A DNA stretch of 64,000 bases from an uncultured Gammaproteobacteria bacterium (GTDB lineage Bacteria; Patescibacteriota; Patescibacteriia; Magasanikbacterales; UBA922): assembly GCA_964612105.1 (NCBI GenBank), contig CAZTEU010000001.1:79115-143114 (forward strand), written 5' to 3'. Positions within the stretch are counted from its first letter, which is position 1. Each line of letters opens with the position of its first letter. The notes under the pieces were generated by a model. The model saw only the letters and a program-made list of their open reading frames with translations. It did no database searches and had not been told where the DNA came from. Shown here in pieces: positions 28,091 to 62,258 of this stretch. Made by a program: the position numbers and the translations under genes.

Positions 28091-28125
28091 ATAATATAAA
28101 AGCAGCCTGAGGCTGCTTATTCAAT

Positions 28126-28755: not shown

Positions 28756-29766
28756 CTATTTGTACAGTTCTGTTTGTGGATGGACTGCTACCCAAGAAAA
28801 CCAATATGTGGTAAATGGATTGATCCTCTCAAGTTTGTTATCAGTTTTCTTAAACATCTGCACTGCGTCCAATTCACTAATATACTTAAGTACAATTTCT
28901 TCACCTTCAAAATGATCTACAATTTCTTTTTTGTCTTTTATTTTGCTAGGTACGTACGCTTTAGCTTTATTATTTATAATAATACCAAACACCAACTCCT
29001 TTGGGTTTAGCCTATCATCTTTATTGTCCACAGGAAATATTATTTCATCGCTTTTATGATAATCCGCGTATGGGTCTCTCCCATAGAATCTTATAGCACC
29101 TGTGTCCTTCGAGAGCACCTCACCATCTGGATAATTACTGGACCACGAACCAAAGGTTGTAAGATCATATGGGACTATCCTAAGTTTCCTGCCTGTCATA
29201 GGACCTACAATGGCTTCTCCAAGCGCTTGGGACCAATAGCTAAGAGTTGCCCTATCATACATAACGAGATTTGAGTTCCAAAGCTTTCCTGATGTACCAA
29301 ACTCTACCCTCTCGTCATTTACTAGTGGGTCAAACACAATACCAGAACCACACAGTGGGCAGTACGTAACTAATATTCTTTGTCCATTAACTGTATCATT
29401 TACAATTTCATGCCAGACTAGTATTTGATAAGGATAAAATCTACTAACTCCGTCCATATCTATACTTATCCCCGAATCATCGTCCTTAAGAAATTTACTT
29501 GCATCACTTACAGAAACGTATTTTGGGTCGTCTATAGAAGGAATACCGTCCATTGGAGGTCCTCCTCCAACTATATCTTCAAGAGGAACACTATGTTTTG
29601 TTTCTTCATCCATAATGTCCTTATCAATTTCTTCTGCTGTATTATTTGTGCTTGGATCTAGAGCTTCTTTACGTAGGTTTTGTACAGCAAAAAGGTAGTA
29701 TACAATTGCAAATGTACAGATAATAACAACACTTATAATAATGAAGGCTTGTATTGAATTTTTCAT
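28756..29766 (-). CDS. DUF3179-family membrane-anchored protein
   Basis: N-terminal TM helix and a conserved YCPLCGSG core. Confidence 0.5.
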   Translation of the reverse strand: MKNSIQAFIIISVVIICTFAIVYYLFAVQNLRKEALDPSTNNTAEEIDKDIMDEETKHSVPLEDIVGGGPPMDGIPSIDDPKYVSVSDASKFLKDDDSGISIDMDGVSRFYPYQILVWHEIVNDTVNGQRILVTYCPLCGSGIVFDPLVNDERVEFGTSGKLWNSNLVMYDRATLSYWSQALGEAIVGPMTGRKLRIVPYDLTTFGSWSSNYPDGEVLSKDTGAIRFYGRDPYADYHKSDEIIFPVDNKDDRLNPKELVFGIIINNKAKAYVPSKIKDKKEIVDHFEGEEIVLKYISELDAVQMFKKTDNKLERINPFTTYWFSWVAVHPQTELYK

Positions 29767-29772
29767 TTCGTC

Positions 29773-30189
29773 TTATTTCTGAGACTCTACAATAGCTTTT
29801 ACAATTTTTGAGTCTGCTTTTAGGTTTTCTATAAAAAGAATGTTATCTTTGTTGATAATCATCAAATCCTCTGGCTCATGTAGCTCTTCCCCAAGTTTTA
29901 TTAATGACATGTCTGTTTTATCTATAGCGTTCTTGTTTTGATCCTGCAATTGTTGCTTCGCCTTTAGATAATAAATATCCGTTAGGTTTATCCACTCATA
30001 CTTTTGTCTTTCCACATGACCAAAATATACTTGACCGTTTGTGAGAAATACTGCTTGATATGTATTATCTTGAAATTGATATGATTTTTTGTGTTTTATA
30101 TATACTAACTTAGTTGCAATCAAAAGTATTATTACTGAAATAATCACAACTACAAGCTTCGATTCAATTACTTTATTTCCAATCTTCAT
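29773..30189 (-). CDS. Hypothetical single-pass membrane protein
   Basis: N-terminal TM helix, 138 aa. Confidence 0.4.
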   Translation of the reverse strand: MKIGNKVIESKLVVVIISVIILLIATKLVYIKHKKSYQFQDNTYQAVFLTNGQVYFGHVERQKYEWINLTDIYYLKAKQQLQDQNKNAIDKTDMSLIKLGEELHEPEDLMIINKDNILFIENLKADSKIVKAIVESQK

Positions 30190-30193
30190 ATAA

Positions 30194-30622
30194 TTATTGC
30201 TCTAGTGTGGGTTCATTATCCTCCCCTTGAGAATTAAAATTTACTGATCCAATATTTATTATCTTCTTCTCCGCCTCTCTATATATTAGTGCCCTATCTT
30301 TATAAATTAATAACCTATCACCATTTTCTGCATTATTAAAAAACTCTTGTTGTTCTTTGAGTACCACTATATCCTTAATAGTAGCCACTGCTGGTTTCTC
30401 CTCTGGAAGAAGAATAATTTTGTTTACCTCTTCGATTAATAAATCTACACTATTACTGTCTTCCTCTGTTACAGTATCTACGTTTTCTACTATTTCTACA
30501 TCGCTTTTGTTTTTATTAGTAAAAAACCACAGAGAAAATAGTATAATTACAATAATAAAAATTACTGTGAGTATCACAGTGACAGGTGGTCTGTTCTCTT
30601 TTTTCTTATACTCTATAGGCAT
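30194..30622 (-). CDS. Hypothetical single-pass membrane protein
   Basis: TM helix near the N-terminus, 142 aa. Confidence 0.4.
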   Translation of the reverse strand: MPIEYKKKENRPPVTVILTVIFIIVIILFSLWFFTNKNKSDVEIVENVDTVTEEDSNSVDLLIEEVNKIILLPEEKPAVATIKDIVVLKEQQEFFNNAENGDRLLIYKDRALIYREAEKKIINIGSVNFNSQGEDNEPTLEQ

Positions 30623-30634
30623 ATACTAATCACA

Positions 30635-33600
30635 CTATGAATCTAGATCTGTATTTTCTATTACTTCTGGGACTTGCTCTTGTATTTCCAAAACCTCTAT
30701 AGCTTCTTCTACAACTTCTGGAACTTCCTCAATAACCACCGTTGATGGTTCTTCTACTACATCTTCTGTAACATCAAGCAATAATTCTTCTTCATTATTA
30801 ATTATTTCTTCGTCCTCGCTTATAGTTCCTACTTCTTCTGACTCATCTACTGACTCAATCAACCCTTCGCTTTCCTCTTCTAGAACCTCGTCTTCTACAT
30901 CTTCGATATCATCTTCCTCTACTAATTCTACTTCCTCAACATCTTCATCAGTAACGTTCTCCACATTCTCTGTTTCCTCCTCTATATTACCCTCTTCTGC
31001 ATTATTCTCTTCCTCTACTAATTCTACTTCCTCAATCGTATATTCGCAAGTTCCATCATCCAGTGTCGCCTCCTCTGAGTAATTTTCTGCAGATGGATCT
31101 ATACAACCAGCGCTTACTTCGTAATTGTAATAATCACTCCATGATTTTACTTCTAGTGTGTAATTTCCAGTCTCGCCCGTAGATACAAATATTTTTGGCT
31201 CGTTCACTGGCGTTGCTAACCAATTCAAGGGTACATCACTAGATGACACTGGATCTATAGAAATTGTAAATCCTTTGGTGCTTATATTTTCTGCAACAAA
31301 ATAGTTTAGCTCGGATCTACTTGTTAGTGTAAGATTGATAATTGGCGTGTACGTAAACTCTTTTACAAAAACTATATCAACCTGACTATCCCCTGCAACT
31401 ATCTTTGCCGCTCCAGCTGTTGCACTCTCTAGCTTGTTTACACTCTCAACTACTATATTCTCTTTCTCTGCTACTATCTCACTACCTGCAAGCAAATTAA
31501 GTGTCTGTTCTATAACATCTAATCTAGAAGATGTCTCTTTATGACTACTGTCCATTTCTGCTACATCATGCAATATTGAACCCATTTTTACTTCGTTTGA
31601 GGTTGTAAATTCTGTAAGCGTGTTTTGTAGTTCAGTATATGTATCATTAAGAGAAACCACCTTGATTGTATTTTTATCTACTTTCTGGCCGATATCCTCA
31701 ATTTCTGACTGATGAATAGCAAGAGTTGATGTTACACTTCCTAAATTATTAACAACTAGCTTCTGCTCCTCAATTGCTTTATACAATTCTAAAATATATA
31801 ACGAATTGGTCTCTGTTGTCTCCCATAGTTGCGTAGACAATTCACCAAGAGAAAGTCTGCCCCCCTCATCCCACTCACTTCGTCCTCTAATAGTTGGTAA
31901 GTGCCTATTCTCTTCTACAAAATCTGAAAGTTCAGCAATTCCCATCATCTGATACTGACTCCTAACATGATCATCTTCCTCTGCCACCTCTCCATCAAAG
32001 TACCAATCAAATACATAGTCAGCAAGAAGAACATTGTCGTCATAAACATTTTGAGCATTAATATTACCCGCCCCGGGTGTTATATCAGCGGGATCTCCAA
32101 CAATAATTCCACCAGAACCACCCTCTGCTCCAGTTACATACAAGGTTCCACTAACATATGTATCTGGAGTAAAGTAGTCCCAATACATATTTATCTCTTT
32201 ATTATCCCCCATCTTTTCTCCAGAACCAAACTCAACTCTGTTCTCTGTCTGATTTCTATAAAACCAAAATGGTCTGTTTACCTCTCCAATTACTAAACCA
32301 CCTGTTGTGGTTACTACACCACTCATTAAAGAATCGCCAGTATATACTGTTCCAGACGCAAATATATTATTAAATGCAGAGCCGAAGTTACCAATTGATG
32401 ACTGTGCATTCCCTGGTAGTCCAGGTAATGCGTCTCCCCCAAGATATACTGTATTTGAGACATATAAACTACCCCACGCTGCACCAAACCCACCCAAATC
32501 ATATGTATCGTGCAACCATGGGGTTATTTGGGTGGTTGTAACAGATGACATGTAGGCTGTACTAGAAACAGTTAAATTTCTCCAAGCATTTTCAAACACT
32601 CCAAGATCTCTCGTATTGTCTCCATCTGGCATTAAAGCAGAAGCAACAGTAGAATTAAAGGTTACTGTATCTGCTGCAACAGAATCACCAAAAGTGTTGT
32701 TGCTGTTGAACACACCATTGCCTGTAACAGTCAGTGTACCACTCATATTTACACCTTCGGAGCTATCTGTTGTGACTATTTCAACTATGCCGGTTTTTCC
32801 AGCTGAATCAAAGCTTAGTGCAGATGCATTATTGTCTAATAAATCCCAATCGATGGCAGTATCAGATGTTATGTCGCCGTTTATACCAAAAGCTCCTGCA
32901 TAAACAGTACCAGACGCAAATATGTCATTAAATGATGCGTTGAACCCACCTATTGATGAGGCTCCATTTCCACCAAGACCAGGAAGAGCATCCCCTCCTA
33001 GATATACTGTATTTGATACATATAAATTACCCCATGCCTGACCAAACTCTCCCAGATCATGCGTGTCATGAGTCCATGGTGTAATCTGTGTAGTAGTAGC
33101 TGATGCAATTCTTGCTGTACCAGATGCATATAAGTCATTCCAAGCGCTTCCGTACGCACCAATGTCTGTTGTATTATTTTCTGTTGGAGCAACCGTATTT
33201 GCAAAGGTGCTTGTACCACTCACAGCCAAATCTCCGGATAGTTTTACTCTTTCATGACCATCTGTTGTGTCTAGTTCTAATATCCCTGCAGATCCAGCTG
33301 AATCGAAACTTAGAGCAGATGCATTATTGTCTAATAAATCCCAGTCCAGAGCAGTTCCTGTGGTATCAAAATCCGAGACATTTGTTAGAACTGTTCCAGA
33401 TGAACCAGAAAAGGTAAAGGTGGACGTTGCAGAAAGGTCTCCGATGTCTAGTATTCCATAAAATGCACCTCCGGAGGATTCCAGTATAGATATGTTTGAA
33501 TTGGCATTACTTAGCACTAAATCACCAGTAGACGTTGTATTTCCAGCTCCATCTATTTTAAGGGCTGTTTCTTCCGACCAGTTTGAGCCATCCCATCTTA

Positions 33601-34165
33601 GCAATGCTCCTGCACTTGTACCATCTGCAAGTGTTCCACTAGCAACAGTGTCTACCCAACTGGAAGAAAGCCCATCATAGAGATATAGCAGACCATCGTC
33701 TGTATCGTAGTATAGATCCCCCGCTGAAGGTGATGTTGGTGCTGTAGTTGTTGCATATGCCCCATATGTTGTATCTGAGGTGTATGCAAAACCTACAGCG
33801 TTGACCGGTTGACGTGGTGTCATTGCCCCATCACTATTTACATTAACCTCTACCCAATACTGTTTGTCAAAATCTAGATTTAGTGCTGTTGTATCTCCAA
33901 GAGAAACGGAGAAATAACCACTAGATATTGAAACACTAGATTGGGTCTCTGTCCAAACAGAACTACCTCCAGTTAGTGCATCATACAATGTAAACACAAT
34001 GTCGTATGTGGCTGTTACTGCCGCATCATTTCCGTCTGTTAAATATCCCGCATAGGTTATATAGTGAGGTACATTTTGCGCAGTTTTTGCTGGTACTGCA
34101 AAAAGCACTTGTGTTACCAGAAGCGCTACAATGCAAATGGGAATTATTCGCATTATGTTTTTCAT
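30635..34165 (-). CDS. Giant secreted repetitive surface protein (possible adhesin / fibre-like protein) with a poly-acidic C-terminal tail
   Basis: 1176 aa with an N-terminal signal peptide and Gly/Ser/Thr/Asn-rich beta-type composition. A ~165-aa module is duplicated (AIDWDLLDNNASALSFDSAG...TTTQITPW.HDT.DLG.FG.AWG.LYVSNTVYLGGDALPGL). The last ~170 aa are almost entirely E/D/V low-complexity. Confidence 0.6.
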   Translation of the reverse strand: MKNIMRIIPICIVALLVTQVLFAVPAKTAQNVPHYITYAGYLTDGNDAAVTATYDIVFTLYDALTGGSSVWTETQSSVSISSGYFSVSLGDTTALNLDFDKQYWVEVNVNSDGAMTPRQPVNAVGFAYTSDTTYGAYATTTAPTSPSAGDLYYDTDDGLLYLYDGLSSSWVDTVASGTLADGTSAGALLRWDGSNWSEETALKIDGAGNTTSTGDLVLSNANSNISILESSGGAFYGILDIGDLSATSTFTFSGSSGTVLTNVSDFDTTGTALDWDLLDNNASALSFDSAGSAGILELDTTDGHERVKLSGDLAVSGTSTFANTVAPTENNTTDIGAYGSAWNDLYASGTARIASATTTQITPWTHDTHDLGEFGQAWGNLYVSNTVYLGGDALPGLGGNGASSIGGFNASFNDIFASGTVYAGAFGINGDITSDTAIDWDLLDNNASALSFDSAGKTGIVEIVTTDSSEGVNMSGTLTVTGNGVFNSNNTFGDSVAADTVTFNSTVASALMPDGDNTRDLGVFENAWRNLTVSSTAYMSSVTTTQITPWLHDTYDLGGFGAAWGSLYVSNTVYLGGDALPGLPGNAQSSIGNFGSAFNNIFASGTVYTGDSLMSGVVTTTGGLVIGEVNRPFWFYRNQTENRVEFGSGEKMGDNKEINMYWDYFTPDTYVSGTLYVTGAEGGSGGIIVGDPADITPGAGNINAQNVYDDNVLLADYVFDWYFDGEVAEEDDHVRSQYQMMGIAELSDFVEENRHLPTIRGRSEWDEGGRLSLGELSTQLWETTETNSLYILELYKAIEEQKLVVNNLGSVTSTLAIHQSEIEDIGQKVDKNTIKVVSLNDTYTELQNTLTEFTTSNEVKMGSILHDVAEMDSSHKETSSRLDVIEQTLNLLAGSEIVAEKENIVVESVNKLESATAGAAKIVAGDSQVDIVFVKEFTYTPIINLTLTSRSELNYFVAENISTKGFTISIDPVSSSDVPLNWLATPVNEPKIFVSTGETGNYTLEVKSWSDYYNYEVSAGCIDPSAENYSEEATLDDGTCEYTIEEVELVEEENNAEEGNIEEETENVENVTDEDVEEVELVEEDDIEDVEDEVLEEESEGLIESVDESEEVGTISEDEEIINNEEELLLDVTEDVVEEPSTVVIEEVPEVVEEAIEVLEIQEQVPEVIENTDLDS
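32440..33450. repeat. Tandem near-identical DNA repeats (~0.5-kb units) inside the giant surface-protein gene
   Basis: For example, gcagatgcattattgtctaataaatccca at 32820 and again at 33314. The encoded peptide ADALLSNKSQS also appears twice in the reverse-frame ORF track. Confidence 0.6.
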
Positions 34166-36198
34166 TTCTTCTTTTTAATACCTTCTTTAAAAAATAACCA
34201 GTATATTGCAATTGACAGTATCAATATTATACCACAAATTATTATAATTGTTTGAAGTATGTCCCCAATTTTAGTCAGTGCTATCCTCTTGTTTATAACC
34301 TCTTCATTAACAGTGAAAGAATCCGTCGTTTTGTCTCTGTAAGTTGCAGATTTTACTTGGAGATAATAGTCACCTGGAGGAGTCTTAAACGCAAACTCCC
34401 CGTCTTCTGCTGTAACTTGTGGATTTATCTGATTGTATAAGTGTGCTGGCCATACAACCCACTCCCCCGTCTTATTTAGTACAAAGAGGGTTACCTCTGC
34501 TGACTTAATCAAGGATTCTTGTCTTGTAAACACTTTCCATGGTTTTTTCCAGCTCCACTCTCCCCATTCCTTTGTGTATACAACCCCGTATGGATCTACA
34601 AGCACTGTCCTATCCAACTCCTCATACGTATTGTCTGTATAAATAATCTGAACAATCATCTGGTATTTACCCTTCTCCTTTGGTGCATTAATTGTTGCTT
34701 CGTATTGATTTGAATCTCTGTTATAGCTTAGGACATATGCTTCTGTTTTTAGTGTAAGAGTGATTGTTTCTACAGGCTTCCTAAACATTGATGCAGAAAT
34801 TGCAAATATAGCATCTGAGTCTGCAAATACATGCCAATCTACAGATTCATCGATAGGCTGTACTGTAATAGGAGCAACTATTGATTTTTCTTCTTCACTT
34901 GCAATATCTGGTAATTTCTCCTGTAATATCTCCTCAATCTCTACTTTTTCCTCTGGAGTGAGGGTTTTGTATATATTTGCTTGTATTGCACCAAATTGAT
35001 CAACAAGCCCTTCTTTTATTTGGGAAACTCTCTCTCTTGAGTCTTCTCCTAAATCACGGAATATTTGTGCCACATCGTATAGCCCCCTGTTTATTCTTTG
35101 CTTCATTAATGAGAAAAGTGTTGGCTCTATTGTAATCTGAGACTCCTCCGGGGTAATATCCACAAGTCCTTCTGGAAGTTTTTGTGGTTCAGCTGGGAAG
35201 TATGGTAATTCTACTTTATCTTTCTTAGTGTCCCCCTCACTCTTATCTTTTTTTTCTGTAATTGATTCTGCTTTTTCTTTCTCCTCATATGTAGTTTTAC
35301 CTGTGCTCACCGCCTTTATGGCTCCAGAAGATATATTACCTGAAGTATCAACAACAAAAAGTGAATAGTAATAGGTCACATTCGCGATTATATCACTATC
35401 TTTGTATGATTCACCCTCCCCAACATATATACTTTCTCCATCTGTACTGTTATTTGGATAAGACTTATTATTTCTAACCAATTTAATGCTTTTCATGTCA
35501 TTAATCTCTGGGTTTTTCCAGGATAATCCTATATTTGACCCATCAAAAACTGCTTCAAAATTCGTAACATTAGAAACCTGCTTCACTATAGGTAATGAAA
35601 TAAATGAGTATGACTTTGTTTCCTTTACATTATTTGGAAGATCCTTGAGATGAATTGTAAAATTATATTCTACTCCTGGAACTAAATCCTTGAGTAGAAA
35701 TGAGTGATTCTCTGAAAAACTGTCTTCTGTTGCTGTGCTAAGATTATATAGATTACCTACTCCGTATTGAATATATGCAACCGCTATTTCGTTTGTATCA
35801 AAAACAATCTGAGCTGTACTATCTGTAATATTTATTATTGTAAGATTTTCTACAGTTGTAGGAACCTTATCAGGAAGACTTCCTCCACCTCCTCCCCCAC
35901 TAGACGATGAAGAGTCATCAGAGCTAGCTTCTGCTGCAAGAGGAATTGGAACTGTACCAGACTTTACAGTAAAGCTGTCACTGGCGCTTTTTTCTGCAAG
36001 TCCTCCACCTGAGTTTACTTCAAAACTATCTGATGTGGAGTTTTCGCTTACAGAGTCTACCTGACCATTATATATCTTAAAGTTAGTGCTTGCTGAAACA
36101 GCAAACACGTTCTGTGGTATTAAAAAAATACAACCAACAAGCGCTATGATAACACCTCTCGCCATAATCATTTTTAATATTTGAATACAGTATATCAA
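34162..36198 (-). CDS. Secreted, C-terminally membrane-anchored surface protein with Ig/FN3-like beta domains
   Basis: Signal peptide, a poly-Gly/Ser linker, FN3-like segments and a C-terminal hydrophobic helix followed by KKKK. Confidence 0.5.
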   Translation of the reverse strand: MIYCIQILKMIMARGVIIALVGCIFLIPQNVFAVSASTNFKIYNGQVDSVSENSTSDSFEVNSGGGLAEKSASDSFTVKSGTVPIPLAAEASSDDSSSSSGGGGGGSLPDKVPTTVENLTIINITDSTAQIVFDTNEIAVAYIQYGVGNLYNLSTATEDSFSENHSFLLKDLVPGVEYNFTIHLKDLPNNVKETKSYSFISLPIVKQVSNVTNFEAVFDGSNIGLSWKNPEINDMKSIKLVRNNKSYPNNSTDGESIYVGEGESYKDSDIIANVTYYYSLFVVDTSGNISSGAIKAVSTGKTTYEEKEKAESITEKKDKSEGDTKKDKVELPYFPAEPQKLPEGLVDITPEESQITIEPTLFSLMKQRINRGLYDVAQIFRDLGEDSRERVSQIKEGLVDQFGAIQANIYKTLTPEEKVEIEEILQEKLPDIASEEEKSIVAPITVQPIDESVDWHVFADSDAIFAISASMFRKPVETITLTLKTEAYVLSYNRDSNQYEATINAPKEKGKYQMIVQIIYTDNTYEELDRTVLVDPYGVVYTKEWGEWSWKKPWKVFTRQESLIKSAEVTLFVLNKTGEWVVWPAHLYNQINPQVTAEDGEFAFKTPPGDYYLQVKSATYRDKTTDSFTVNEEVINKRIALTKIGDILQTIIIICGIILILSIAIYWLFFKEGIKKKK

Positions 36199-36240: not shown

Positions 36241-36268
36241 CAAAAAAACCCCAATTTAGGGGTTTTAT
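36241..36268 (-). terminator. Rho-independent terminator downstream of the tRNA pair (minus strand)
   Basis: Minus-strand aacccctaaattggggtt hairpin followed by a T7 run. Confidence 0.65.
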
Positions 36269-36269
36269 G

Positions 36270-36341
36270 CTCTGCGGGTCGGATTCGAACCGACGGCCAA
36301 TTGGTTAACAGCCAACTGCTCTACCACTGAGCTACCGCAGA
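36270..36341 (-). tRNA. tRNA-Asn (anticodon GTT)
   Basis: Cloverleaf with a 7-bp acceptor (tctgcgg/ccgcaga), D arm gctc/gagc, anticodon loop ctGTTaa and T arm gtcgg-ttcgaat-ccgac. No CCA encoded. Confidence 0.85.
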
Positions 36342-36356
36342 ATTTTTTTCTCCTTG

Positions 36357-36427
36357 TTCGCGGGCAGGGATTCGAACCCCGATAGCCAGGACCAAAACCT
36401 GGAGTCCTACCATTAGACGACCCGCGA
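36357..36427 (-). tRNA. tRNA-Gln (anticodon TTG)
   Basis: Acceptor tcgcggg/cccgcga, anticodon stem ccagg/cctgg, loop ttTTGgt and T loop ttcgaat. No CCA encoded. Confidence 0.8.
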
Positions 36428-36428
36428 G

Positions 36429-37376
36429 TTATACGCGCAGGTGTCTGCGCATTGCAATCAGACTTGATAAAATCGTCAGCACCAGGACAATGGCGCACTG
36501 AGATCCAAGCAACAGCATTATATTCGAGTTGAAGTACATTGTCAAGAAGTCGGCCTTTCCAATAATTACCTCAATATATGGATCAAGAAAATTGGCTGTT
36601 AACAGCATTATAAGGTATGTAAGAACAGCACTGACTACACTAAAAATGATAGATACAAGCATGTATGGACCTCTCACAAACCAATTAGAGGCTCCAACTA
36701 GTTTTTTTATGCTAATTTCTATTCTTTGTGTATATATAGATATTCTAATTGTATTAAATATTATTACAAAAGCAATAATTGCAAAAAATATGCTGAGCGC
36801 CACACTAAAGCGCTCAACCTGAACCATAATCATATCTATGCGACTAATTGCCTTCTCTGTATCCTGAAACGTCTTAGATTCGATTATATTTTCATACTCA
36901 GGCACACCAAGTGCTGTTATTATCTTCTGGTAATCACTTGTCTCCCTTGTCTTAACTACCATTGTTGCTCCAAGTGGATTGTCTTCCAGCTCATCTAAAG
37001 CACCTACAATTTCTTGGCTGTCCTTGTAGGTTTTCCTAAATTGATCAAGTACTTCTTCTCGAGTATAAAACACAGTGTCTGTAACTTCAGGAAATGATTT
37101 GATAAAACTCTTTACTTCCTCGATTTGAGTATCTGTTGCTGAATGATCAAAATATATACTAACATCTATACGATCTTTAATATTCGCACTCGCCTCTTCT
37201 GTAAGAAGTCTAATAACGACGACTGTATTTATAGAAAGCAACATGAGTATAAGAACAAGAATAGTCATCATTGAGAGGCTTGAATTGCGGACTATATCTT
37301 GGAGCGCAAACTTAACTACACGTAAAAATGAAAGCATATTAAAGTATATATTTACCATGTTGTTTGTCTGAAACAA
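36429..37376 (-). CDS. ftsX: Cell division permease FtsX
   Basis: Four-TM FtsX topology with a large periplasmic loop. Probable true start at the internal ATG near 37331 (MLSFLRVV). Confidence 0.8.
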   Translation of the reverse strand: MFQTNNMVNIYFNMLSFLRVVKFALQDIVRNSSLSMMTILVLILMLLSINTVVVIRLLTEEASANIKDRIDVSIYFDHSATDTQIEEVKSFIKSFPEVTDTVFYTREEVLDQFRKTYKDSQEIVGALDELEDNPLGATMVVKTRETSDYQKIITALGVPEYENIIESKTFQDTEKAISRIDMIMVQVERFSVALSIFFAIIAFVIIFNTIRISIYTQRIEISIKKLVGASNWFVRGPYMLVSIIFSVVSAVLTYLIMLLTANFLDPYIEVIIGKADFLTMYFNSNIMLLLGSQCAIVLVLTILSSLIAMRRHLRV

Positions 37377-57750: not shown

Positions 57751-59771
57751 CAACTTACTAATAACTTAAACTGGGATTCTGTGATAATGTTTACACCCAG
57801 TTTTTTTGATTTTTCATATTTACTTCCTGGTTTCTCTCCCGCAACAAGATAGTCTGTATTTTTGCTCACAGAACCAGAAACACTTCCTCCATTACTTCTT
57901 ACTATTTCTTTTGCTTCATCTCTTGAGAGGGTTTGTAGTGTTCCAGTAAAGACAAAACTTTTTTCTTTAAGTTTACTATTAATTTTCTTTTTCTTTGTCG
58001 ATTTAATAGTAACGCCATTCTCTAATAATTTTTCTACAAGTTTTTTGTTTTTATCATCTTTGAAAAACTCAACAATGGATTCTGCAACACGAGGACCAAC
58101 ATCTGGAACATTTTCTAGTTCTTTCTGCTCTGCTGATATTAATTTTTTAAGAGAAATAAAATGATTTGCAAGTGCAATTGCACTCTCTTCCCCAACGTGC
58201 CTTATACCTAGTGAAAAAATCAAACGCGGTAGTGTAATTTCTTTTGCGTTGTTAACTGATTCCACTAAATTTTCTGCAGATTTTTCAGCAAAACGCTCCA
58301 GTGGTTCCAGATCATCAACTCTTAATGTAAATATATCCGAAACGTCTTTTATTAGACCTTCGTTCATTAATTGCTCCACAATCTTTTTACCAAGTCCATC
58401 TATGTTAAAAGCCTTTTTAGAAACAAAATGAATTATGTTTTTTAACTCTTGAGCAAAACAGTTCCTATTTGTACAAAACAATGCTGTAGAACTCTCTTTT
58501 TTCTTATCCATTATTTCTTTTCTTTCTACTTTCGAGTTACATATTGGACACTCTTTTACTTCTTTTACTTTCTTTTCTTTACCTGTTCTCATTTTCGTAA
58601 GCACACGAACAACTTTTGGAATAATATCCCCCGCTTTCTCCACAATAACTGTATCTCCTACACGAACATCTAGTCGTTTAATTTCATCAAAATTATGTAG
58701 TGTTGCGTGTGTTACGGTTGTTCCAGCTAATTGTACGGGTTCCATTAGCGCAACCGGAGTCAACGCACCTGTTCTACCAACTTGTACATATATATCTTTT
58801 ATTTTTGTACTCCCCTGCTCTGCTGGAAATTTTAATGCTATTGCCCAGCGAGGAGCTTTTCCTGTGTAGCCAAGTATATCCTGATACTCCTTCTGATTTA
58901 CTTTTACAACAACTCCATCTACCCAAAACTCTTTGCTGTGCTTTTCCTTCTGCCACTTATCATGAAAATCCATTATTTCTTTTAGTGTTTTGCACACTTT
59001 CCAATTGTTGTCTGTCAAAAAACCTAGTTCTTTTAGTTCTCTTAGCTCACCTTCCTGCGAAAGCGTGTGTTCATTGGAAATATCATAAGCTGTTACACTT
59101 AACTTTCTTTTTTCCACTATTCTAGGGTCTAATTGGCGAATAGTACCCGCTGCAATATTTCTTGGATTTGCGTAAAGCGGTTCATTATTTTTTTCCCTTT
59201 CTTTATTTATTTTATTAAATATTTTTTGTCCCATCCAAACCTCTCCTTCTGCAATTAAATCTACTTCTTTATTTAGTTTTAGTGGTACGCTGTGAATTGT
59301 TTTAATATTCTGAGTTACATCTTCCCCAACTTTTCCATCACCACGAGTGGCGGCTGTTTCTAACACTCCTTTTTTATAATTTAATACAATGTGCAATCCG
59401 TCTATTTTTAGTTCACAAATATATGTTACATCTTTTGGACGATTTCCTAATTTCTTTTCTAATATTTTTAATATCCTCTCCTGCCAATTTTCCATGTCTT
59501 CTTCTGTAAACGCATCGTTAAATGACCACTGGGGAACAGTGTGTGTAATTTTACTAAACTTTTCCAGGGGGGTACCTGCAATTCTTTGTGTAGGCGAATC
59601 TTTTGTAATTAGTTCTGGGTTTTTCTCTTCTATTACACTAAGCTCATCCATTAACCCCTCGTACATTTTGTCTGTAACTTCTGGATCATTAAGAACATGG
59701 TAACGATATCTAAGATCATTTATTTGTTTGTGCAACTTTTCTACATGCTTCTTTATGTCTTTTTTTGTCAT
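57750..59771 (-). CDS. ligA: NAD-dependent DNA ligase LigA
   Basis: KxDG adenylation motif (ELKIDGLHIV), an OB fold, a Zn finger (CPICNS...C), HhH repeats and a C-terminal BRCT domain. Confidence 0.9.
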   Translation of the reverse strand: MTKKDIKKHVEKLHKQINDLRYRYHVLNDPEVTDKMYEGLMDELSVIEEKNPELITKDSPTQRIAGTPLEKFSKITHTVPQWSFNDAFTEEDMENWQERILKILEKKLGNRPKDVTYICELKIDGLHIVLNYKKGVLETAATRGDGKVGEDVTQNIKTIHSVPLKLNKEVDLIAEGEVWMGQKIFNKINKEREKNNEPLYANPRNIAAGTIRQLDPRIVEKRKLSVTAYDISNEHTLSQEGELRELKELGFLTDNNWKVCKTLKEIMDFHDKWQKEKHSKEFWVDGVVVKVNQKEYQDILGYTGKAPRWAIALKFPAEQGSTKIKDIYVQVGRTGALTPVALMEPVQLAGTTVTHATLHNFDEIKRLDVRVGDTVIVEKAGDIIPKVVRVLTKMRTGKEKKVKEVKECPICNSKVERKEIMDKKKESSTALFCTNRNCFAQELKNIIHFVSKKAFNIDGLGKKIVEQLMNEGLIKDVSDIFTLRVDDLEPLERFAEKSAENLVESVNNAKEITLPRLIFSLGIRHVGEESAIALANHFISLKKLISAEQKELENVPDVGPRVAESIVEFFKDDKNKKLVEKLLENGVTIKSTKKKKINSKLKEKSFVFTGTLQTLSRDEAKEIVRSNGGSVSGSVSKNTDYLVAGEKPGSKYEKSKKLGVNIITESQFKLLVS

Positions 59772-60538
59772 AACAAACTCATATACCAGTTAATAATTGA
59801 CGTCCCCCAAAACATTGCCACAAGTGTGCCGACTGTAAGAAATGTACCAAAAGGAATTTCACTTCTAATTTTTCTTCTTTTTAGAAGAATAAGCATAACA
59901 CCAGCCACTGCTCCAAATATGTATGCAAGCAATAATCCAACTAAAATATTTGGCCAACCTAATATAATACCCATAAACAAACCTAGTCTAATATCTCCCC
60001 CTCCAACCCATTTTCCTTTAGATAATAGGTATTGCAATAAAAAGAAACCAGCACCAATAGATGCTCCTATTAACATAGCTCCCCATTCTTGCCAACCAAG
60101 CCACCAGCTTATACCAAATAATATTACAGCTGGAATTGTTGTTACACGATCTAAAATCTCCATGTAATATAGGTCATACACAAAGACAAACACTAGGAGG
60201 GAAACCAAAATACAGTCGCGTATTATCTGAGGGGCTGGATTTATAAGATAGAGTGAATGATAGTAAGCAACCCATGTAAACAAAACACCTGTAACTATTT
60301 CTACAAGTGGATAGTGGCACGATATATTCTCCTTGCATGACCTACACTTTCCTTTTAGGATAATAAAACTACAGACAGGTATTAGGTCTATAATGCCCAG
60401 GGTTACATTACAATGTACGCATACTGATCTTTCTCTCCAAATCGTGCGTCCTACTCTTGTACGCCAAATCCAAGCATTGAGGAAACTACCAAATACAGCA
60501 CCAATTATTAAAAAATAGGACAAAAATAGCCAATCCAT
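59768..60538 (-). CDS. pilD: Type IV prepilin peptidase (A24 family)
   Basis: N-terminal Cys-x-x-Cys tetrad (CVHCN...CRSC) and polytopic membrane topology. Confidence 0.8.
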   Translation of the reverse strand: MDWLFLSYFLIIGAVFGSFLNAWIWRTRVGRTIWRERSVCVHCNVTLGIIDLIPVCSFIILKGKCRSCKENISCHYPLVEIVTGVLFTWVAYYHSLYLINPAPQIIRDCILVSLLVFVFVYDLYYMEILDRVTTIPAVILFGISWWLGWQEWGAMLIGASIGAGFFLLQYLLSKGKWVGGGDIRLGLFMGIILGWPNILVGLLLAYIFGAVAGVMLILLKRRKIRSEIPFGTFLTVGTLVAMFWGTSIINWYMSLL

Positions 60539-60555
60539 ATGTGGATATTATAGCA

Positions 60556-60586
60556 TTAAAAAAACCCCTCGGAAAGGGGTTTTGTG
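60556..60586 (-). terminator. Rho-independent terminator downstream of the pilin gene (minus strand)
   Basis: cccctttccgagggg hairpin plus a T7 run on the minus strand. Confidence 0.7.
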
Positions 60587-61036
60587 TTATTGTGAGTTGC
60601 GTATTCCAGAAGGTGTGGCTTCTATTACACCTTTTGTTAGTCCACCCATTTCTCCTTCTAGAACTGTTTGTATCCTATATGACGAGCCGTCTGAGGAACT
60701 ATATATATAGGCTCCATCTGATTTAGGGTCACTTGGTACCAATCCCATGTATGCATTCGCATCACAGTTGGCACTCCATCCAGATTCTGTATTTTCCAAA
60801 CAAGCTTGAGTCGCTGCACCTAACGCAACACCGTCTGTGTGTACTGGATACTTGTTGTTGTCTGTGTAGTATAGTTCTAGTGCTGTTTGCACTTGCTTTA
60901 CGTCTGAAAGTCTTTTTGAGTCACGTGCTTTTGTGCGTGCTGAGCTTATCGCAATAACAGCAAGTGTTGAGAGTAGTCCTATAATTGCTATTACAACCAA
61001 AAGCTCAATTAATGTAAACCCTTTTTTTGTACGCAT
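60587..61036 (-). CDS. Type IV pilin / pseudopilin (prepilin-type N-terminal methylation domain)
   Basis: KKGFTLIELLVVIAIIG class III signal peptide. Confidence 0.85.
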   Translation of the reverse strand: MRTKKGFTLIELLVVIAIIGLLSTLAVIAISSARTKARDSKRLSDVKQVQTALELYYTDNNKYPVHTDGVALGAATQACLENTESGWSANCDANAYMGLVPSDPKSDGAYIYSSSDGSSYRIQTVLEGEMGGLTKGVIEATPSGIRNSQ

Positions 61037-61094
61037 ATATTATAAAATTTGATTTTTTATGTGTTTAACACTCTGGACTATACTACAATATTGA

Positions 61095-62258
61095 TTATTT
61101 TGCAATATTTCTCAACGCAAGACCTATTGCTACTCCCATTCTCGGCCCTATTTTATCTAGTACGGGTTTTAGTCCCTGTTGGTATACGACACGTGCCCAT
61201 GGATCTCCTACAAACACCTTCATTGGGAATGTCTTTTCTAGTCTTTCTATAATAAAAGGCATAACAGATGAACCGCCGGTTAGGATTATCTTTTCTGGAT
61301 GTTTTCCTTCGTTTCCTAGCTGGTGTAAATATACATCAAAGTTATATTGAATTTCTTTTACAATAGCATTTAGCATTTCCTCAAAGATTTCTGTGGTTAC
61401 AGAACCTTTTGGTAACCTAGACATATCAACCTTTAGTTGCCCTGCTAGCTTTGGCTCTACCCCAAGTGTGAGAGCAATTGATTCTTCTATATCATTACCT
61501 CCAATTTGAATACTCCTGTGAGTCATTGGGAGTCCTTGATCTATTATAAAAAGGTTTGTTCTTTCTGCTCCTATATCTACAATCATTGATGTTGCTGGAT
61601 CTTTTCCTACAAGTGAGCGCTCTAAAGCAAAAGCCTCTGTCTCTAATTCCTGTAGTCGCAAACCAGCTGCTTGAAAAATTGACGTGTAAAAAGCCACAAC
61701 AGATTTTGGCGCTGCTGTAACTAATACTCGTATGTACTTTCGTTTCTTTTCTAAATCAGTCTGTGGAATCTTTTGATGTATTATTTGCATCTCATCATCT
61801 GATCTCGAGAGTAATTTTTTCACTTCTGCACGCACTATGGGCATTATTCCCTTATCATCTGTCTCTGGAAGAGTTAGTACAGTATGAAAAACATAAGAGA
61901 CAGGAATACTTGCTGCTGCGTTTATAGACTGAGCTTTTGATTGGGCAACAACTTCCTTTAATATCTTGGCGTATTTTGCAACCTGCATCTGATTCTGGTC
62001 GGAAATAATTTTCTGTTCCATACCAGGACCTTTTTGTGTATTTTCTGCATGAGGACTCTTTGCTTCTTTCAAGAAATCGTTTGGGGTTTTGTCTTCCTGA
62101 GAGTCCACATGTATATCTGTAGAATCTTTTGCAATACCATAGGTCCAAAGTTGTGCTCTTCCCTTAGTTTTTTTAAGCTCAACTAACTTAACACCATGTG
62201 CTCCAATGTCTACACCAAGAAAGGAATCAGTTTTATTTCCAAATATTCCCATACGCAA
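61095..62258 (-). CDS. pilM: Type IV pilus assembly protein PilM (actin-like ATPase fold)
   Basis: N-terminal [16 protein letters not shown] and an actin/FtsA-like fold pattern. Confidence 0.7.

Follow-up and report, generated by a model that had tools for sequence, protein, structure and literature searches.

A probable MAT-type surface fibre with membrane-anchored neighbours in a Patescibacteria-like bacterium

Mosaic adhesive trimer (MAT) fibres, known from Bdellovibrio as prey-binding structures, are defined by a signal peptide, a conserved β-rich N domain of ~130 amino acids (aa), a trimeric β-helix/prism shaft and an adhesive tip that is either S74 or non-S74 (PMC10769870). In the model put forward for them, the signal peptide and the invariant N domain hold the fibre at the surface of the producer, and the swappable tip, projected by an intertwined trimeric shaft, binds prey glycans; the producer-surface element bound by the N domain was left unidentified by Caulton et al. 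2024 (PMC10769870). Bdellovibrio bacteriovorus possesses a repertoire of 21 MAT fibres, six tips including S74, two new β-sandwiches, a TNF-like fold and a C-type lectin were described, and the authors allowed for additional tip domains in other bacteria (PMC10769870). A gene for a related fibre lies in a 64-kb stretch of DNA from a bacterium termed Patescibacteria-like by the affinities of its relatives (hereafter the window, meaning the whole stretch analysed), where it occupies the centre of a minus-strand cluster. The product of the locus is probably a MAT-kind fibre adhesin of the cell surface, accompanied by membrane-anchored partners, and by analogy the fibre is most likely a host-attachment device. 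Beyond type IV pili, host recognition and holding by Patescibacteria (candidate phyla radiation, CPR) are largely unknown, and full-text literature searches retrieved no paper describing MAT-like fibres in these bacteria.

Compared with the Bdellovibrio fibres of the non-S74 subgroup, the window protein shows the same beginning, namely a signal peptide and, directly after it, a homologous β-rich N domain, as well as a long Gly/Ser/Thr-rich shaft and exchangeable C-terminal modules that include a lectin-type fold. In both systems some relatives end in Peptidase_S74 and others do not, the genes are chromosomal rather than phage-borne, and for the present organism, too, a life in attachment to other cells is predicted. 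The differences concern the tip, which is H-type-lectin-like and falls outside the six described tips, is preceded by a neck and a helical stalk and is followed by a Cys motif and an acidic tail of 134 aa; the copy number, with only one fibre within the window against 21; and the gene neighbourhood, since the window fibre is flanked by genes of anchored partners that were found at Patescibacteria loci only among 80 loci examined. The envelope of Patescibacteria is presumably monoderm-like, unlike that of Bdellovibrio. Relative to the published description of MAT fibres, the occurrence in Patescibacteria with an anchored gene pair, the H-type-lectin-like tip, the neck module and the acidic tail are new.

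The window fibre also shares with the YadA family of trimeric autotransporter adhesins a modular, repetitive construction with head, stalk and coiled-coil logic, and one relative of its N domain carries YadA-head repeats. In contrast to that family, searches of Pfam and NCBIfam with the window fibre gave no YadA head, neck or C-terminal β-barrel anchor, its anchoring would be N-terminal, and an outer membrane is not expected.

The preliminary description of this DNA, made before any database search, had reported five consecutive co-directional genes for exported or membrane proteins. The open reading frame (ORF) listing agrees with this, giving five minus-strand ORFs, and hydropathy places an N-terminal hydrophobic segment in 5 of the 5 products:

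34162-36198, minus strand: FN3 protein gene, 678 aa, called p669 (ORF listing)
30635-34165, minus strand: fibre protein gene, 1176 aa (ORF listing)
30194-30622, minus strand: gene of a 142-aa protein (p142) with an N-terminal transmembrane (TM) anchor (ORF listing, hydropathy)
29773-30189, minus strand: gene of a 138-aa protein (p138) with an N-terminal anchor (ORF listing, hydropathy)
28756-29766, minus strand: DUF3179 protein gene with an N-terminal TM anchor (ORF listing, Pfam PF11376)

The intergenic gaps within the cluster range from -4 to +12 nucleotides (nt), and an ATGA overlap joins the 678-aa and 1176-aa genes, the first two of the operon. Public gene calls place the start of the former at ATG 36171, which yields 669 aa. 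As a whole, the preliminary observation was confirmed in part and the accompanying interpretation partly supported, as set out below.

The N domain and the lectin-like tip

The fibre is identical to protein P0001, whose start lies 4 codons downstream, and is arranged as a signal peptide, an N domain, a shaft, a neck, a helical stretch, an H-type-lectin-like domain, a Cys motif and an acidic tail, with these positions:

34079-34165, minus strand: signal peptide, aa 1-29 (MKNIMR, hydrophobic core, PAKTA; hydropathy)
33791-34075, minus strand: β-rich N domain, aa ~31-125 (NCBIfam NF053851 match)
32186-33595, minus strand: Gly/Ser/Thr/Asn-rich shaft, aa ~191-660 (composition, alignments)
32858-33352, minus strand: shaft module copy 1, aa 272-436
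32306-32857, minus strand: shaft module copy 2, aa 437-620
31751-32128, minus strand: neck module, aa ~680-805 (VG.P...GAG.INA..VYDDNVLL.DYVFD.YFDG ... RHLPT..GR.EW ... LWET.ET..LYI.EL)
31451-31750, minus strand: predicted helical stretch, aa ~806-905 (AlphaFold2 model)
31196-31423, minus strand: six-stranded β-sandwich, aa ~915-990 (AlphaFold2, Foldseek, Pfam)
31040-31108, minus strand: two-Cys motif GC.DP.A.NY....DDG.CEY, aa 1020-1042
30638-31039, minus strand: acidic low-complexity tail, aa 1043-1176 (composition)

No homolog family could be named for this protein from its letters in the preliminary description, a statement now superseded by the identification of NF053851 for the N domain and of an H_lectin-like fold near the C-terminus. 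The sole NCBIfam match of the whole fibre was NF053851 (Bdello_MAT_N) with E 1.5e-4, which improved to 5.3e-6 when aa 1-200 were searched alone, and 8 of the 10 proteins sharing the N domain matched the same model (best E 4.8e-13). An AlphaFold2 monomer was computed from a 23-sequence MAFFT alignment, with a mean predicted local distance difference test (pLDDT) score of 46 and usable parts at aa 31-122 and 915-990; in it the N domain is all-β with pLDDT 80-96. The signal peptide is indicated by a basic n-region and a hydrophobic segment at aa 2-29 (maximal Kyte-Doolittle value 2.5), and a helix spans residues 2-22 of the model. These sequence comparisons support homology between the N domain of the fibre and that of the Bdellovibrio MAT proteins, and the domain is presumed to be the cell-proximal docking domain.

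The second usable part of the model comprises six strands at aa 916-986 with pLDDT 73-95. H_lectin (PF09458) was the top Pfam family for it, with E 0.033 for the whole fibre and 0.0021 for the domain alone, and was matched by 4 of 11 homologues of the domain at E<=0.1 (best 3.5e-4). In a Foldseek search of the PDB, ranks 1, 3, 5, 7, 8, 10 and 12 were H-type lectins (SLL-2, HPA, HAA, discoidin II), among which the R2 pyocin fibre and the receptor-binding domain of the cyanophage Pam1 tailspike were interleaved, and against BFVD, a set of predicted viral structures, the top matches were tail fibres of phages, receptor-binding proteins and one protein annotated as 'H-type lectin domain'. The six-stranded β-sandwich of ~75-100 residues resembles that of H-type lectins (PF09458; HPA 2CCV, SLL-2 3WMP, discoidin II 2VME) and of fibre tips with the same fold, such as the R2 pyocin fibre (6CL6) and the Pam1 tailspike (7EEA). 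Known members of the H-type-lectin fold are trimeric carbohydrate binders at fibre tips, and the window domain is presumed from its modelled fold to be a glycan-binding tip. The likeness to phage tail fibres or adhesins that had been remarked on at the outset is backed by these results, as an exported, fibre-like surface protein with MAT N homology and a lectin/fibre-tip fold emerges from them.

Mosaicism, synteny and the anchored partners

The N domain is distributed far beyond the window. When GTDB species, each represented by a single genome, were scanned with a narrow N-domain pattern (alignment A4), this yielded 418 loci confirmed by tblastn, spanning Omnitrophota, Planctomycetota, Zixibacteria, Eisenbacteria, Nitrospirota, Geobacter relatives and several Patescibacteria classes, and the homologous N domain thus heads modular fibres in many phyla. 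The nearest matches were L002 (62%) and L003, from a Candidatus Magasanikbacteria metagenome-assembled genome (53%). L002 (CAYSQU010000036.1), which is labelled 'uncultured Gammaproteobacteria', contains the closest relatives of p669 and of the fibre N domain, arranged as they are in the window, and this bin label is probably wrong.

BLASTP dissected the fibre into parts with separate relatives. The N domain was common to proteins ending in Peptidase_S74, pectate-lyase-like or YadA-head parts; submodules of the shaft were found in a different set of proteins, many of them of unrelated length; and the C-terminal 340 residues were common essentially to P0002 only. The latter is a 1223-aa protein from the syntenic locus of a related genome, which shows 49% identity in the N domain and 38% in the C-terminal region and also ends in an acidic tail, whereas its middle is largely different from that of the window fibre. 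Its contig displays the order FtsE, FtsX, three small inserted genes, a 663-aa protein, the 1223-aa fibre, 234 aa and 131 aa, and continues with PPIase, DUF3179, 117 aa, glutaredoxin, an RNase-H-like protein and SUF. The comparison of synteny proposed in the preliminary description found the FN3-protein/fibre gene pair recurring in related genomes, namely on the P0002 contig and in L002 and L003, with the p669 homologues directly upstream of the fibre in the latter two.

p669 agrees with its earlier portrayal as a 678-aa FN3-like protein with a C-terminal anchor, as it combines FN3-like domains with a C-terminal TM helix and a KKKK tail. It starts with a predicted signal peptide and a Ser/Gly-rich linker bearing S-x-N-F/Y-K-I-Y-x-G motifs, continues with two FN3-like domains (aa ~107-289; weak Pfam matches, Foldseek tandem FN3 with E 1e-9 to 1e-7) and, after a long helix of low model confidence, with two CarboxypepD_reg-like β-sandwich domains (aa ~446-632). 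A search of NCBIfam returned a sole, weak match of the tail only (E 0.049). Sortase (LPXTG) anchoring was ruled out, the C-terminus reading ...RIALTKIGDILQTIIIICG...KKKK without LPXTG, and a conserved LPXTG was absent from the homologues as well. The protein is a candidate for the role of a membrane-anchored base on which the fibre sits, or of a partner to it.

p142 consists of its anchor and a conserved ectodomain of ~75 aa (LLP..E.P.VATI.D ... FF..A.NGD.LL.Y ... YR.S..KI..VGPV), for which neither a Pfam family nor a PDB relative was found; a word-index protein search with it gave 2 proteins only. A lectin function was considered for p142 and rejected, the PDB profile matches being sub-threshold and treated as chance. 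They joined the segment A.NGD.LL.Y...YR.S with monocot-mannose-binding-lectin domains (pyocin L1/L2, tuber agglutinin) at E 0.03-2.6, probably by chance, and are recorded here since the fibre beside p142 has a lectin-like tip.

The neighbourhoods of 80 N-domain loci were examined for partner genes, and homologues of the window partners occurred only beside Patescibacteria-type fibres. p142 homologues lie directly downstream of the fibre in L004, L016 (Paceibacterota), L070 and L071 (Saccharimonadales), where the upstream proteins share the architecture of p669 with its C-terminal TM helix and, in most, a signal peptide. Wherever the DNA upstream of the fibre at a partner locus could be seen, the product of the preceding gene has a basic tail and a TM helix located at its C-terminus or close to it; these upstream proteins measure 269-1067 aa and most possess a signal peptide. 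The fibres beside the partner homologues resemble the window fibre in the N domain only, and that of L016 is P0007, which carries an S74 domain, so that p142 accompanies S74 and non-S74 fibres alike. A reverse test led to the same arrangement: P0058, the only distant p142 homologue that the protein search gave, stands directly after a 2750-aa MAT-N protein and is followed by a second p142 paralogue.

p669 and p142 are proposed as docking partners because across Patescibacteria both accompany fibres that share only the N domain, and a role in docking or base assembly is preferred over that of a tip chaperone since the partners track the N domain irrespective of the S74 end. Pairs of a phage fibre and a downstream assembly chaperone are exemplified by stf-tfa of lambda, H-G of P2 and gp37-gp38 of T4, and the window resembles them in that a long modular fibre gene is followed at once by a small conserved gene. 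Unlike those chaperones, p142 is membrane-anchored with an extracytoplasmic domain, resembles none of the Tfa families (neither PHROGs nor Pfam gave a match) and follows the N domain of the fibre rather than the tip.

Of the five genes described as one cluster, those of the fibre, the FN3 protein and p142 make up the recurring cassette. The DUF3179 gene, whose identity was clear (PF11376, E 8.9e-93; 311 bits, cut-off 27), is adjacent only here and on the P0002 contig, and its linkage is local synteny only. p138, a second small partner, is conserved only in the closest loci, with a homologue in L004 straight after the p142 homologue; on the P0002 contig a 131-aa gene occupies its position.

In L070 (3913-13819) and L071 (239-8453) the fibre-p142 pair is embedded in a longer co-directional run of secreted or anchored proteins, of ~319, 191, 350, 345 and 380 aa upstream and 296 and 220 aa downstream. 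Two of ~350 aa start with SSTNFNLKSYDFGNGGG, resembling the mature N-terminus of p669 (ASTNFKIYNGQ), and the run may be a larger surface-structure operon. At non-Patescibacteria loci the MAT-N fibres are often tandem paralogues, recalling the Bdellovibrio repertoire; two to four per locus were seen in L017, L024, L027, L043, L052, L054, L060, L065, L073 and L074, from Zixibacteria, Melioribacteraceae, Cloacimonadota and others. Several of these fibres precede small N-anchored proteins of ~75-190 aa that are unrelated to p142 in sequence.

Proposed function and alternative explanations

Considering the domain order, a route from export to attachment can be suggested. The 1176-aa fibre would be exported by the Sec system via its signal peptide and would presumably trimerise like its described counterparts, with the N-terminal β domain kept at the cell surface while the shaft, neck and helical stalk push the H-type-lectin-like domain outward. 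There the tip domain could bind a glycan on the surface of another cell, be it host or partner, the acidic tail forming a disordered appendage. p669, translationally coupled and anchored by its C-terminal TM helix, and the N-anchored p142 would serve in docking the fibre to the cytoplasmic membrane or wall, or in its assembly there. The two anchored proteins that bracket the fibre in Patescibacteria are testable candidates for docking partners, and the lectin-like tip region (aa ~906-1042) offers a defined unit for a host-ligand search. A more far-reaching version takes the three-gene core (a protein with both a signal peptide and a C-terminal TM helix, a MAT-N fibre and p142) as a dedicated display system that tethers fibres, in which one flanking protein is the receptor of the MAT N domain; it would be the main host-recognition device independent of type IV pili in many ultrasmall episymbionts, with the host range set by swapping of shaft and tip. 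This extension is speculative and rather unlikely to hold.

Several observations weigh against the assignment as a MAT-type adhesin. The N domain scores 26 bits with NF053851 against a curated cut-off of 60, and the alignment covers only the first half of the model (profile positions 4-77 of 162), unlike the Bdellovibrio proteins; therefore the fibre stands outside the Bdellovibrio subfamily as NCBI defines it. In the AlphaFold2 monomer 906 of 1176 residues, including the shaft, have pLDDT <50, and the shaft sequence YLGGDALPGL, present twice, resembles the MAT capping-loop motif V-G-G/N-pi-x-x-P-x-x-x-L only loosely. For the tip, H_lectin scores of 14.8 bits (whole protein) and 18.6 bits (domain) stay below the Pfam gathering score of 24, unlike those of H-type lectins, and the Foldseek E-values against the PDB are modest (2e-3 to 1e-2) and come without an aligned query range. 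In addition, the lectin-like domain lies inside a C-terminal region that extends beyond it, unlike in H-type lectins, and is not terminal as the described MAT tips are, the Cys motif and the 134-aa tail coming after it. Gene order is the sole basis on which the flanking proteins are candidates for a partner role.

A different function could be sought in a structural fibre of the envelope (S-layer, wall spacer, matrix or biofilm), whose lectin-like domain binds the cell's own wall polymers instead of a host. The conserved chromosomal position amid housekeeping and cell-division genes, with FtsEX upstream, would suit such a role, as would the single copy in the window against the 21-member repertoire of Bdellovibrio, the membrane anchors of the partner proteins and an acidic tail that could bind cations or basic wall components. 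Yet even orthologous loci in synteny have unlike shafts and tips, P0002 being largely unrelated in its middle, a pattern characteristic of receptor-binding proteins that diversify by exchange and not of scaffolds, and the closest folds of the tip are phage or pyocin receptor-binding tips and lectins, which makes an envelope role improbable. Far less probable still is a remnant of a phage or tailocin tail fibre, prophage-derived cargo with unrelated neighbours, for which one could cite the fold that the tip has in common with the R2 pyocin fibre and with tail fibres and receptor-binding proteins of phages, together with the phage-type Peptidase_S74 chaperone in which N-domain relatives often end. 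The G+C content is also raised, reaching 41% at 32001-34000 against 35-37% in the flanks, but this rise coincides with the Gly/Ala/Ser/Thr-rich coding of the shaft and is most simply read as a compositional effect of the protein. The fibre has a Sec-type signal peptide, no phage genes lie near it, its neighbours are housekeeping genes, and locus and gene order are kept in the related genome of the P0002 contig. Phage origin was rejected when PHROGs, an N-domain scan of IMG/VR and tblastn in 50,697 phage genomes all remained without a match.

The internal repeats of the shaft raise a further possibility concerning variation rather than function. The recurring motif reported earlier was recovered as D[LI]G.[FY]G.AW..LY.S and variants six times (aa 334, 370, 404, 520, 556 and 590), three per module, and the duplication of the module is real. 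It is not near-identical as had been claimed: the copies agree in 56% of the protein sequence (aa 281-434 vs 446-620, 21 gap columns) and in 67.5% of the DNA over aligned codons, with 70% and 79% in ungapped blocks, and because of these values they are called diverged. Exact DNA matches of 30-40 nt had been reported, but none of at least 30 nt exists, the longest being one 29-mer (32820/33315, 495 nt apart) and the next 17 nt. A contingency locus, in which RecA-dependent or slipped-strand exchange between the copies alters fibre length or antigenicity at high frequency, could exploit this 29-nt match, since its spacing is in frame (165 codons) and homologous recombination in E. coli needs a match of about this length, at the least, to be efficient. 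Against it stand the divergence of the copies, including a 21-residue indel, the finding by Tandem Repeats Finder of no array at the duplication, and the identity of the full-length protein on all 8 contigs examined, with no shorter or longer form in the 90% cluster. A metagenome scan for close fibre variants likewise found none, only distant relatives sharing the WDLLDNN submodule. The recombinogenic, slipped-strand or variable-antigen idea of the preliminary description finds no backing in these data, with diverged repeats and no length variant in the databases searched, and a contingency locus is highly improbable. Judged from the sequences compared, fibre variability is module mosaicism between genomes over evolutionary time, not phase variation.

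Remaining fibre segments and the genomic surroundings

The neck is strongly conserved in alignment A5, with VGSPTGG.KGAGTINA.AVYDDNVLLTDYVFD.YFDG ... RHLPT..GR.EW ... LWETVETQ.LYI.EL. A HMMER search with aa 656-1041 against 1.84 billion representatives retrieved 2899 proteins at E<=1e-3, most of which align to positions ~25-145 of the query, as a rule with a stretch that lies at their own C-terminal end or close to it; 40 representatives reached E<=1e-30, neck module and Cys motif counted together. In hundreds of proteins, which vary widely in length, the C-terminal end is made up by the neck. Neither a relative in the PDB (profile search) nor a Pfam family was found for this widespread module of ~125 aa, for which a separate family might be warranted. 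A degenerate Peptidase_S74 chaperone was considered for it and rejected, as the profile gave only coiled-coil noise against the PDB and PF13884 matched 0 of 27 members; the fibre itself gave no PF13884 match at E<=0.1 in the Pfam search.

In the helical stretch, helices at 838-852 and 861-893 are modelled with pLDDT ~45-64 and a weak heptad signal, and the segment is possibly a coiled-coil stalk. The two-Cys motif recurs in up to 23 matched stretches of other metagenomic proteins, and part of mammalian MPEG1/perforin-2 aligns with it weakly (E 0.31). The acidic tail had been described as about 170 residues of almost pure Glu/Asp/Val; it actually comprises 134 aa, of which 46% are Asp/Glu and 62% Asp/Glu/Val, and contains no Lys or Arg. 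Comparable acidic tails occur in P0002, P0068 and the L004 fibre.

The neighbours of the cluster are housekeeping genes, with FtsEX upstream and SUF and glutaredoxin nearby. Two terminator-like hairpins lie on either side of it:

36245-36266, minus strand: terminator-like hairpin straight after tRNA-Asn (36269-36341); a TATAAT box comes next
28100-28118, both strands: bidirectional terminator-like hairpin, past the glutaredoxin gene

The former is likely the upstream boundary of the transcription unit. The latter is the first minus-strand terminator-like site downstream of the cluster, barring one weak match inside the p142 gene; as the next terminator is reached only past the glutaredoxin gene, the transcription unit may also take in the 117-aa and glutaredoxin genes. 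Between ftsX, whose ORF ends at 36429, and the cluster lie tRNA-Asn and tRNA-Gln (36269-36427) with the strong terminator-like hairpin, and the matching interval of the P0002 contig holds three small protein genes instead. The type IV pilus genes mentioned in the preliminary description are present in the window at 59768-62258 as prepilin peptidase, pilin and PilM. This group, with a 149-aa pilin bearing a GFTLIE leader, adjoins NAD-dependent DNA ligase and is located ~25 kb from the fibre cassette.

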